Source of the DNA: a virus
Lineage: Duplodnaviria > Heunggongvirae > Uroviricota > Caudoviricetes
Virus record (IMG/VR): IMGVR_UViG_2737471849_000005
Reading direction: 5' to 3' (one strand)
DNA length: 37,298 nt
Part shown: piece after piece, positions 11,585 through 13,320 of the stretch
How positions within the stretch are numbered: position 1 is the stretch's first letter
How the letters are laid out: each line of letters begins with the position of its first letter
Program-made: the position numbers and the translations under genes
The notes under the pieces: generated by a model
Told to the model about the DNA's origin: nothing
Seen by the model: only the letters and a program-made list of their open reading frames with translations
Database searches by the model: none

Positions 11585-12616
11585 TTAGTTAAGCTCATAT
11601 GGAGAAAATTCTATAAGTTTCTCCCCGAGCCATGCGTTTATTTCCATAAATCGTTTTTGCAAAGGAATTAATTCATTTATCACAAAAACCTTACTAGCCT
11701 TCTCCACATCCCCAAACCCCCCAACATTATTAGGCATTATCCCCATCATTTGCGGCGGCACACGGTGTGCCGCCATCATGTCGTCCCGGCTCACGTTCTT
11801 GATATTCAGAAACTCATCCTTCGCCGCGACTTCTGACAACGGGATAATCTGAAGCCCGTCCTTTTTGCCGTTAGGAGAGTACATAAACAGGTTGCGGAAG
11901 TTGCCTGGCCCTTTGGCGCTTTTCATTGCGTTGCGGAGGTTGTTCACATCTTCTTGGTTCTGTGCGGCATCGGTCATGTACATGATGAAACCTGCATGGC
12001 TGCCGTTGATGTAATACTTACGGCGGAACAGTGTGGCGGACTCGTTGAGCAGGGCTGACGGGATGGCAGAGAGATAACCTGGCAGGCCGTAGATCTCCTG
12101 GTTGATGTCCGGTTCCATCAGATGAAAAATGCTGCCTTTCGTGAACTGATACGGCTGGGCTGTCATACCGTCTTGCACAAACCAGTAGGTATCCAGGTCT
12201 AATCCGCGTCGGGTGTATTTTGCCAAAGCTGGCTCAAGGGCGATAACTTCACCAAAGCGGTTCGTGCGTTTCTCCAGGTAGGCGTTACCAAATACCAGAT
12301 AGTCCTGCACAAAACGCGAAAAAGCCTGCTGGCTGAGCAGCGGATGAGGGATATAGGTACTGGTCAGAATGTTGCACTTTACTGCAATCGGGGAACTGTG
12401 ATGCACGGCGGCGCGGAAGGTGCGCGCCAGTCCATTAAAGCTGACGGGCGGCTCATACCAGCGATCCATCTGTACGCATTCCACATAGTCCAGCAGTTCG
12501 CGGCGGTCCAGCACGGGGATGGGATCACCAAAGCTGAAAGCCTCAGCCGTTGGGCCGTTGCTTGGTTTTGTGTCGTGACCAACTGTTACCTGCTTGGTGT
12601 TTTTACGTTTGCTCAT
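11585..12616 (-). CDS. Q: Portal protein (P2 gpQ family)
   Basis: A 343-aa ORF whose size and position match P2 Q. Its start overlaps the upstream gene's stop (ATGA). Confidence 0.88.
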   Translation of the reverse strand: MSKRKNTKQVTVGHDTKPSNGPTAEAFSFGDPIPVLDRRELLDYVECVQMDRWYEPPVSFNGLARTFRAAVHHSSPIAVKCNILTSTYIPHPLLSQQAFSRFVQDYLVFGNAYLEKRTNRFGEVIALEPALAKYTRRGLDLDTYWFVQDGMTAQPYQFTKGSIFHLMEPDINQEIYGLPGYLSAIPSALLNESATLFRRKYYINGSHAGFIMYMTDAAQNQEDVNNLRNAMKSAKGPGNFRNLFMYSPNGKKDGLQIIPLSEVAAKDEFLNIKNVSRDDMMAAHRVPPQMMGIMPNNVGGFGDVEKASKVFVINELIPLQKRFMEINAWLGEKLIEFSPYELN

Positions 12617-13320
12617 TCTGCCAGTTCCTTGCTAGCGAGAGGCCATTCGCACATAAACAGCATTTTCCAGTCCTCTTCTGATAATTCTTTTTTCATATCG
12701 TTCAGCCAGTTATCAGTAAACAACATTGCTCTAGATGCTGCTGCGTCATCTGCGGTGAACACCATGCTGGTTACGCTGTTGTTTCTGCATAGCTTTTTAT
12801 ATTCCTGCCGTGCCTCTGGGTTAGGGCTGGGAGTGGTGTAGTAGGTGGCGTGGTGGTGTGCGTGCATAGAAATCCCTTTAGCGATGGCAATCATATTTCT
12901 CGGTGATTCACTCCAGGCATACTCTGACACGTAAACATTTCCACTGAGTGCGGAGGTGAGACTGCGGAGGTCGGTAAAATAAATTACTGCACCATTCGGA
13001 AGCTCCAGATGACTTTTGCCTGATTTTATTTTTCCAGTGTGCGTATAAGCTGCGGCCTGGCTTAAGAATGCTGATACATAGGCTTTGATTGCCTGCGCAG
13101 ATGCTGTGCTGCAGCAGAGGAAAATCTGGTTACGCCCGGTATGCAGTGCATCGTTCAGGGCTTCATAGGAAAAAAAGAAATCCGCGCCTACCTGGCGCAT
13201 TTTTGTGAGTACACGGTTTCTACTCTTTGGGCCAGTGTTCCACTCATACTGGTAAGCAAAGAAAGAGCTATCCACCGGAAGTCCCGCGATAGTCATGAGG
13301 TTAGTTGGGATTGGGGGCAT
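12613..13320 (-). CDS. Terminase large-subunit (gpP) paralogue, ATPase-domain-only (235 aa)
   Basis: The translation aligns by eye to residues ~140-390 of the adjacent P protein (e.g. [27 protein letters not shown] versus [36 protein letters not shown] versus LPNGATLYF; MLFMCEW versus LLMCEF). Its start forms TGATG with the P stop and its stop forms ATGA with the Q start. Confidence 0.7.
   Translation of the reverse strand: [235 protein letters not shown]

Follow-up and report, generated by a model that had tools for sequence, protein, structure and literature searches.

Between the genes P and Q of a 186-like P2-family prophage of Escherichia coli lies a stand-alone paralogue of the ATPase domain of the large terminase subunit (TerL), a real gene under purifying selection that is named mini-TerL in the following. 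The prophage sequence, here called the window, is a stretch of 37,298 nucleotides of viral DNA (Caudoviricetes; IMG/VR record IMGVR_UViG_2737471849_000005). The mini-TerL coding sequence (CDS) occupies positions 12613..13320 on the minus strand and encodes 235 amino acids plus the stop. Pairwise ratios of nonsynonymous to synonymous substitution rates (dN/dS) were 0.17-0.41 for mini-TerL, compared to 0.004-0.09 for P and 0.01-0.11 for Q at the same loci, ranges which leave out near-identical pairs; relative to full-length TerLs of the P2 type, the mini-TerL values were 3-10 times higher. The ratio was used instead of identity, because the identity gap between the genes (76 % for mini-TerL where P has 99 %) is partly due to mosaic recombination and dS differs among mini-TerL, P and Q. 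The lowest values within mini-TerL were located in residues 41-70 (P-loop helix), 151-170 (C-motif) and 205-224 (the C-terminal 'LFMCEW' helix). Sliding windows of 20 codons gave a maximum pN/pS of 0.53, and positive selection on mini-TerL was rejected as no window exceeded this value.

The open reading frame (ORF) was intact at all 11 correctly delimited loci inspected, and over deep divergence its length remained stable at about 220-290 amino acids. The order P-mini-Q was present in every context examined, with an overlap of 1 nt to P and of 4 nt to Q (8 nt at one locus), and this slot with its overlaps also held for members only 30-40 % identical to the mini-TerL of the window. An initial annotation, made from the sequence alone, had argued from the overlapping stop and start codons that the gene is maintained and co-translated, not a fragment in decay. 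Synteny and overlaps conserved down to approximately 30 % identity, together with dN/dS ratios of 0.2-0.4, agree with this view. The recombination scar that it had offered as an alternative has to be rejected, as has a homing or mobile insertion: frames are intact in 11 loci, selection is purifying, the slot is constant and the ORF contains no nuclease domain.

Operon structure and domain content

The first gene of the operon is P (13320..15086, minus strand), encoding the full-length large terminase of 588 amino acids with a helix-turn-helix (HTH)-like Terminase_5 domain, the ATPase domain and an RNaseH-like nuclease; its identity is backed by the annotation of P2 and 186 as well as by Pfam domains. 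The last gene is Q (11585..12616, minus strand), encoding the portal protein of 343 amino acids, the translation of which is probably coupled to mini-TerL. The position of the 235-amino acid ORF between these two genes and the overlaps of the initial annotation were confirmed: the TGA stop of P (13322-13320) overlaps the ATG of mini-TerL (13320-13318) as TGATG, and the TGA stop of mini-TerL (12615-12613) overlaps the ATG of Q (12616-12614) as ATGA. A TTG is located one codon upstream of the mini-TerL ATG. At the P-stop/mini-start junction GGAGATTTTTTGATG (13318..13332, minus strand), a Shine-Dalgarno sequence GGAG (13329-13332) lies within the last P codons and is followed by TGATG; at the mini-stop/Q-start junction AAGGAACTGGCAGAATGA (12613..12630, minus strand), a Shine-Dalgarno-like AAGGAA (12625-12630) lies within the last mini-TerL codons and is followed by ATGA. 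The layout GGAG-N7-8-T[GA]ATG was also present at 10 other loci and at insert-free P/Q junctions. The ATGA overlap between mini-TerL and Q was observed in 10 of the 11 loci inspected, locus L029 having the overlap of 8 nt, and at both mini-TerL junctions of the loci inspected, the Shine-Dalgarno sequence lay within the terminal part of the upstream gene. These stop/start overlaps would imply a coupled translation of mini-TerL. A programmed -1 frameshift joining P to mini-TerL was considered, as a T6 run precedes the P stop and the mini-TerL frame is open for 8 codons upstream; as a feature of the family it was rejected, because the T-run is not conserved at other loci.

Promoter prediction yielded no sigma-70-like promoter within or just upstream of mini-TerL. 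In the intergenic region of P and O, a TGT-N12-ACA dyad (15133..15150, plus strand) was found, presumably the B/Ogr-type late-activator site of divergent late promoters; its position matches the annotated sites in P2 and 186. As this dyad is located at the presumed late promoters, the P-mini-Q operon should be expressed late. Further dyads of this type are situated at 21041-21058, upstream of the baseplate V gene, and at 27161-27178, upstream of the sheath gene. The total of 8 TGT-N12-ACA dyads in the window is not above chance (9.65 expected), only their positions are suggestive.

By eye, the initial annotation had seen a homology to the central ATPase region of P. BLASTP aligned ORF residues 18-226 to P residues 142-368 with 76 identities in 238 positions (32 %, E 2e-31), and the fold is that of a TerL ATPase. 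Likewise, the reported absence of the N-terminal HTH-like and the C-terminal nuclease parts was borne out by Pfam, which detected Terminase_6N alone in mini-TerL (9e-17), but Terminase_5, Terminase_6N and Terminase_6C in P. The gpP-like HTH domain (Terminase_5) is missing, the alignment beginning only at P residue 142, and the ORF stops where the ATPase domain ends, hence without the RNaseH-like nuclease of Terminase_6C. Relative to P, mini-TerL also lacks approximately 28 residues of the insertion following the C-motif. The protein matches PHROG 3746 (2e-84). An AlphaFold2 model based on 35 homologues had a pLDDT of 80 and a pTM of 0.81, and its top Foldseek matches were the TerL ATPase domains of P74-26, PhiV-1, T4, D6E and Sf6 (TMq up to 0.70) as well as viral TerLs; a TerL solved in complex with Avs3 was also matched (8dgc_E, TMq 0.70). 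The ATPase domain of T4 gp17 (N360 construct) matched with a TMq of 0.68. A search by sequence with the mini-TerL profile and P against the PDB gave no TerL match. NCBIfam contained no family for mini-TerL, and the PADLOC defence-system models contained none at E <= 1e-3. In databases, such ORFs are labelled 'terminase large subunit' or 'terminase large subunit domain-containing protein'. Of the four features that define a TerL, mini-TerL lacks three, the catalytic set, the nuclease and the HTH domain, and should not be filed as TerL.

Active site of mini-TerL and its relatives

The motifs were mapped by hhalign to T4 gp17, by the positions of the elements in the model and by the common RQxG string. 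The P-loop, a Walker A-like element of residues 39-47 (TKMRQVGAD; 13180..13206, minus strand), has kept Lys40, Arg42 and Gly45, but carries Asp47 in place of the Walker A Thr that is present in P and in T4 gp17 (SRQLGKT). In the model, KMRQVGAD sits at the strand-loop-helix position of a P-loop, and it has RQxG in common with the SRQLGKT of T4. P-type TerLs have an Ala at the position of the classical GK[ST] lysine and a Lys at the start of the loop instead. Deviant Walker A motifs of a similar kind have been described for lambda gpA. In the Walker B-like strand, residues 128-133 (NVYVSE; 12922..12939, minus strand), Ser132 replaces the Walker B Asp and Glu133 is kept; hhalign placed VYVSE on MIYIDE of T4 gp17 with the Walker B residue D255 and the catalytic E256. 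A C-motif-like TTPS (residues 162-165; 12826..12837, minus strand) was aligned to TTTP 285-288 of T4 gp17. Tyr23-Gln24 (13249..13254, minus strand), presumably the adenine-binding Q motif of TerL ATPases, has its Gln24 in 36 of 38 mini-TerLs and 56 of 60 TerLs.

The nucleotide-pocket residues Gln24, Arg36, Lys40, Arg42, Gly45 and Glu133 are kept in mini-TerL, whereas the complete catalytic set (P-loop Lys, Arg and Gly with Ser or Thr, Walker B Asp and catalytic Glu) is not present. Within the subfamily of the window K40, R42, G45, A46, D47, S132 and E133 are invariant. The motif differences between P and mini-TerL quoted in the initial annotation are present in the sequence, and the alignment to T4 gp17, which it had proposed for a decision on the Walker motifs, established the replacement of both the Walker A Thr and the Walker B Asp. 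The exchange of Thr for Asp and of Asp for Ser may represent a compensated rewiring of the metal site, or else a filling of the pocket. Mini-TerL may bind nucleotides without hydrolysing them normally.

The comparison with relatives was performed on two samples, 109 short proteins from clusters at 90 % identity and the representatives of 50 % clusters from an exhaustive search. In the 90 % clusters, Walker A Thr was paired with Walker B Asp in 31 cases; three further sequences with Thr were fragments without an aligned Walker B residue. A Walker A Asp was paired with Ser (67), Gly (6), Ala (2) or Leu (1), and none of these 76 clusters had Asp at both positions. Asp47 was invariant in all 76 clusters of this class, class II. 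The same exclusion was seen among the 50 % representatives, where Asp132 occurred in 0 of 12 mini-TerLs with Asp47 and in 19 of the 26 others. The combination K40/R42/G45/[ST]47/D132/E133 was complete in all 60 full-length TerLs, but in only 10 of 38 mini-TerLs (Fisher p = 2e-16, not corrected for phylogeny). With Thr to Asp and Asp to Ser fixed in the subfamily as well, the suspicion of an inactive ATPase in the initial annotation gained weight. Lineage-specific lesions comprised K40 to A, Q, C, N, H, L, E or T, E133 to Q, N, D or H, D132 to N, Q, S, P or A, and T47 to D or N. Three of the most degenerate mini-TerLs were examined for their surroundings, and all resided in the normal P-mini-Q context.

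Thirteen positions conserved to at least 90 % in TerLs, among them Walker and C-motif residues, are free in mini-TerLs. Eleven residues are kept in both groups: Q24, R36, R42, G45, E53, G62, F67, F115, G127, T159 and C224. Among the 38 mini-TerL representatives, with mutual identities below 50 %, R36, E53 and T159 were invariant and Q24, R42, G45 and G62 were present in at least 92 %. Mini-TerL thus shares with P2 gpP and the TerL Orf12 of phage 186 the homologous ATPase domain, the fold, the Q motif, the P-loop Lys, Arg and Gly, the catalytic Glu and the C-terminal 'L(F/L)MCE(W/F)' helix, but differs in the lack of the HTH and nuclease domains, in the replaced Walker A Thr and Walker B Asp and in the 13 unconserved positions. 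Since catalytic residues have disappeared in many different ways from the relatives that occupy this slot, the function of the family would not require ATP hydrolysis. The simplest reading is that it needs the fold and a part of the nucleotide pocket, rather than ATP hydrolysis or motor coupling.

Relatives, distribution and genomic surroundings

Word-indexed and exhaustive profile searches retrieved many stand-alone proteins of 218-286 amino acids of the mini-TerL kind, from the genera Escherichia, Salmonella, Citrobacter, Klebsiella, Enterobacter, Yersinia, Serratia, Hafnia, Pectobacterium, Pantoea, Buttiauxella and Iodobacter. The P-mini-Q layout was seen in prophages of Yersinia, Klebsiella, Serratia, Hafnia, Buttiauxella and Iodobacter, for a type of 227 amino acids and in a metagenomic genome. 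Isolated viable phages carry the gene as well: Yersinia phage MLG42, vB_YenM_201.16, Escherichia phage Midge and phage 186. Among complete E. coli genomes, the window type was present in 21 and the 186 type in 8, while approximately 1,222 genomes match the flanks of the P/Q junction. In an insert-free P2-like prophage of E. coli, P and Q are directly adjacent and P is 99.3 % identical to P of the window. P was 99 % identical across phages with the mini-TerL of the window, with mini-TerL alleles down to 76 % identity and without the gene. Mini-TerL is ancient and syntenic, yet dispensable and patchy, and in E. coli it is rare. The direct adjacency of P and Q in phage P2 stated in the initial annotation is correct; the two genes overlap by 1 nt and a mini-TerL is missing.

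The impression of an unusual insert did not hold, for a homologue fills this slot in many Peduoviridae, prototype phage 186 among them. In the 186 genome (NC_001317), this is the CDS 1215..1961 of 248 amino acids, noted as 'similar to Orf12' and located between orf12, the P homologue, and orf2, the Q homologue. It shares with the mini-TerL of the window the slot between TerL and portal, the overlaps of 1 nt and 4 nt, the solitary Terminase_6N domain and a BLASTP identity of 32 % over 226 amino acids (E 1e-35). In contrast, the motifs KSRQIGAT and LDE are canonical in the 186 ORF and the insertion behind its C-motif is largely preserved, where the window has GAD, SE and the deletion of approximately 28 residues; the two are as far from one another as each is from P. 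Of one condition that the initial annotation had set for its own refutation, a standard component of 186-type phages with a known role, half applies: its presence in 186 was established, a known role was not found. The RefSeq record of 186 (NC_001317, 196-1961) places the label W and one locus tag on both the portal CDS (196-1218) and the mini-TerL CDS (1215-1961), so that genetics assigns no phenotype to mini-TerL. Polarity in the operon could have merged several 186 genes into one complementation group. Annotated since the deposition of the 186 sequence, this ORF is the closest known relative, and no function was found or recorded for it or for the mini-TerL of the window. Full-text literature searches, whose coverage did not extend to the phage 186 papers of the 1990s, found no study or function for mini-TerL. 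In the passages searched of two studies on P2/P4 hotspots, the A-Q hotspot is described and the P-Q slot is unmentioned.

A recent local duplication of the adjacent P was rejected as origin, as no mini-TerL fell inside the enterobacterial P clade (92 % bootstrap) in a neighbour-joining tree; the monophyly of mini-TerLs obtained bootstrap values of 9-12 % in this tree. The Iodobacter sp. locus L030 (JANXSO010000164.1; 5001-5852) encodes a mini-TerL of 283 amino acids in which the Walker motifs are canonical and the insertion behind the C-motif is complete; the protein grouped with full-length P and not with the other mini-TerLs (80 % bootstrap). A duplication that is younger, or independent, may be its origin. 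This prophage of a betaproteobacterium, with the gene in the same slot, also refuted a restriction to Enterobacterales in parallel to P4-like satellites. Two proteins with Terminase_6N and Phage_portal domains (P0119 and P0151) were considered as 'Rosetta-stone' fusions of mini-TerL and portal; they appear to have arisen by deletions that fused P to Q in degraded P2-like prophages, the ATPase portion of P being joined straight to the C-terminal part of the portal Q. In Escherichia phage 500465-1 (NC_049342; locus L002, 5001-6758) mini-TerL is cut to 176 amino acids and the portal gene is split into two CDSs, which points to frameshifts from sequencing or to a prophage in decay, and not to a viable phage. 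In Proteus faecis (locus L017, 2-458, minus strand) a short TerL-like fragment, 31 % identical to mini-TerL residues 103-165, was located beside a full-length P, on the strand opposite to it.

The closest match to the window was E. coli strain MINF_1D, with 99.8 % identity over a query of 1.2 kb around the ORF; the prophage of this strain carries CI, CII and Fil-family genes. It also contains a DUF5677 gene on the opposite strand between the tail gene S and the baseplate gene V (locus L003, 28638-29657), where the window has none (approximately 21037-21105). Thus the two prophages differ in accessory content despite their 99.8 % identity near mini-TerL. E. coli ARL09/232 (NZ_CP049967.1) harbours two P2-family prophages, one with a mini-TerL of the window type (1300286-1301486; H44) and one with the 186 type (4269738-4270484; H72).

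Two other regions of the window were noted. Between the replication region and the portal gene Q, at the known A-Q defence hotspot of P2-like phages, an AAA_13 ATPase of 778 amino acids is encoded (9199-11535, plus strand; very low GC content of 30.6 %). Its best match was the PADLOC candidate system PDC-S06 (1.5e-266); the models for LmuB, PrrC and AriA matched less well, and NCBIfam contained no matching family. The tail-fibre region (23529-27112) looks like an invertible switch. It comprises a tail fibre of 518 amino acids (23529-25085, plus strand), a tail-fibre assembly protein (25085-25687, plus strand), a second tail-fibre assembly protein (25659-26099, minus strand), a gp53-like fibre C-terminus (26126-26518, minus strand) and a serine invertase with Resolvase (1e-52) and HTH_7 domains (26540-27112, plus strand).

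Proposed function of mini-TerL in DNA packaging

Our preferred interpretation, held tentatively and at somewhat less than even odds, is that of a co-translated, dispensable, non-catalytic mimic of the TerL ATPase that binds the packaging machinery of its own phage. Mini-TerL would share the late transcript of the P operon with P and Q, and termination-reinitiation coupling at both ends would keep its synthesis matched to that of terminase and portal in the late phase of lytic growth. The protein would keep the RecA-like TerL core and several pocket residues with a rewired Mg-ligand pair (Walker A Thr to Asp, Walker B Asp to Ser), and would act by binding, as a non-catalytic TerL-like subunit and not as a motor. 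The likely partner would be a packaging component that contacts the TerL ATPase domain, i.e., TerL itself, the small subunit M or the portal Q, and the putative outcome a modulation of motor assembly or turnover, dispensable for the phage. The extreme conservation of P, Q and presumably M fits a constant partner surface while the rest of mini-TerL drifts, which matches the few invariant patches in an otherwise relaxed protein. The conservation of P next to a variable or missing mini-TerL is also in line with a partner surface that is highly conserved and an accessory protein that the phage can do without.

Polypeptides of comparable character are known from other systems. The T4 record lists internal-start isoforms of gp17, likewise TerL-derived polypeptides beside the full-length enzyme, but these are nested in gene 17, keep the nuclease and are identical in sequence, whereas mini-TerL has a gene of its own, which has diverged, and its active site is degenerate. 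The isolated ATPase domain of T4 gp17 retains an ATPase activity stimulated by the small terminase subunit (TerS), but not DNA packaging. The clamp-loader subunit delta-prime and Rad51 paralogues have kept the fold and part of the pocket, have lost catalytic residues and serve as structural or regulatory partners. Their likeness to mini-TerL is an analogy of mechanism, for which no homology is claimed, and the contact of mini-TerL with TerL is putative. The satellite protein Gpi of PLE reportedly binds the TerL of ICP1. Manipulators of the Gpi type would resemble mini-TerL in acting on the packaging motor by binding and not by catalysis; they differ in being satellite-encoded, unrelated in sequence and inhibitory for the helper, while mini-TerL is encoded by the phage in its own packaging operon.

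Several observations weigh against a non-catalytic accessory protein. The binding partner is itself postulated. The presence is patchy, 29 E. coli genomes of approximately 1,222 with a similar P/Q junction, and a general helper would be expected to be fixed or lost; patchiness is also typical of conflict genes. An inactive subunit in the TerL ring could stall the own motor, hence a regulated or off-ring role has to be assumed. About one quarter of the mini-TerL representatives, that of phage 186 included, retain the complete catalytic set and may be active enzymes, in which case the family would have no single mechanism. The invariance of Asp47 within its class hints at a specific chemistry, and the comparisons of the catalytic set were not corrected for phylogeny.

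Among the alternatives, a TerL decoy appears unlikely, though it is the one to be taken most seriously. Mini-TerL would soak up TerL antagonists, either sensors of the Avs1-3 type or packaging inhibitors of satellites and competitors, and so spare the motor or avert an abortive infection, a role for which ATP hydrolysis is unnecessary. The patchy occurrence among near-identical phages, the dN/dS several-fold above P and Q, an expression coupled to TerL and the fold match to the Avs3-bound TerL are in line with such a decoy, as are satellites that are said to target TerL, PLE with Gpi being the example. Yet mini-TerL is only 32 % identical to its own P and has lost 13 positions conserved to at least 90 % in TerLs, the kind of feature that a pattern-recognition sensor would read; its alleles (76-100 % identical) do not co-vary with P (99 % identical), and no sliding window had a dN/dS above 1. 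One family in one slot over deep divergence is also unlike anti-defence hotspots, in which unrelated genes are swapped in, and no support was found in the literature or in PADLOC. Even less can be said for a competitive weapon, which we consider very improbable: a dominant-negative subunit that poisons the terminase of a co-resident or co-infecting P2-like phage or blocks the packaging of P4-type satellites, the own phage being spared. Catalytic loss with a retained fold is the expected look of a ring poison, the distribution is patchy, and the two prophages with different mini-TerL types in ARL09/232 demonstrate that such phages meet in one cell. However, carriers and non-carriers have 99 % identical P proteins, so that a poison directed at P cannot tell self from non-self. 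A block of P4 packaging would block the helper too, since P4 uses the terminase of its helper phage (PMC9122126). The late expression coupled to the own P and the missing match to defence-system models likewise speak against a weapon.

The two remaining explanations concern the gene without a function and the gene with an enzymatic one. An old partial duplication of P could be a passenger with little or no function of its own, its frame held open mainly by polarity, because the translation of the essential portal is coupled to it. The Q Shine-Dalgarno sequence and start inside the 3' end of mini-TerL at all loci inspected, a constraint relaxed in comparison to P and Q, the repeated decay of catalytic residues, the clean loss in most E. 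coli lineages and a GC content at third codon positions below that of the neighbours (0.51 for mini-TerL, 0.70 for P, 0.61 for Q) would suit a passenger. But dN/dS ratios of 0.2-0.4 are far from 1, and the idea is contradicted by the invariant R36, E53 and T159 among representatives less than 50 % identical, by Asp47 in all class II clusters and by the stable length; moreover, a clean deletion restores the ancestral P-Q coupling, so that a useless gene should vanish fast. A passenger is thus improbable. An active stand-alone ATPase, rather improbable as well, would use Asp47 to take over the Mg2+ coordination from Thr and the Walker B Asp and serve as an extra motor or remodelling subunit, e.g., in loading or releasing the terminase. 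K40, R42, G45, D47 and E133 are invariant in the class of the window, the change from Thr to Asp is always paired with the loss of the Walker B Asp, as in a compensated swap, and 186-type members keep a fully canonical site. For the class of the window and the 186 type a rewired active ATPase is conceivable. It counts against an active enzyme that S, G, A, L and P are all tolerated at position 132, that coupling residues invariant in TerLs are lost, and that other lineages keep the gene in place with exchanges of E to Q, N or H or of K to A, Q or E, changes that abolish hydrolysis in P-loop ATPases.

A bolder version of the non-catalytic role is speculative and, in our estimate, unlikely: mini-TerLs might be widespread phage pseudo-ATPases that guard or gate the packaging motor, either as a TerL look-alike intercepting host immunity or satellite interference, or by holding the terminase inactive until it docks to the portal, with the exchanges of Thr to Asp and Asp to Ser locking the pocket in a nucleotide-bound-like, non-hydrolysing state.

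Descriptions of packaging motors usually list TerL, TerS and the portal. Many P2-family phages encode, between the genes for TerL and the portal, a third polypeptide that derives from TerL, and the pattern of a pseudo-enzyme, with a retained fold and repeatedly lost catalytic residues, is unexpected in a core packaging operon. If mini-TerL proved to be a dispensable passenger, the finding would be ordinary and would matter mainly for annotation, as the label 'terminase large subunit' can mislead. Phage 186 is a genetically tractable carrier of mini-TerL in which the question is directly testable. If mini-TerL modulates the assembly of the motor, or shields TerL from attack by the host or by satellites, a textbook machine would gain a new layer of regulation and the ring ATPases a new non-catalytic paralogue.

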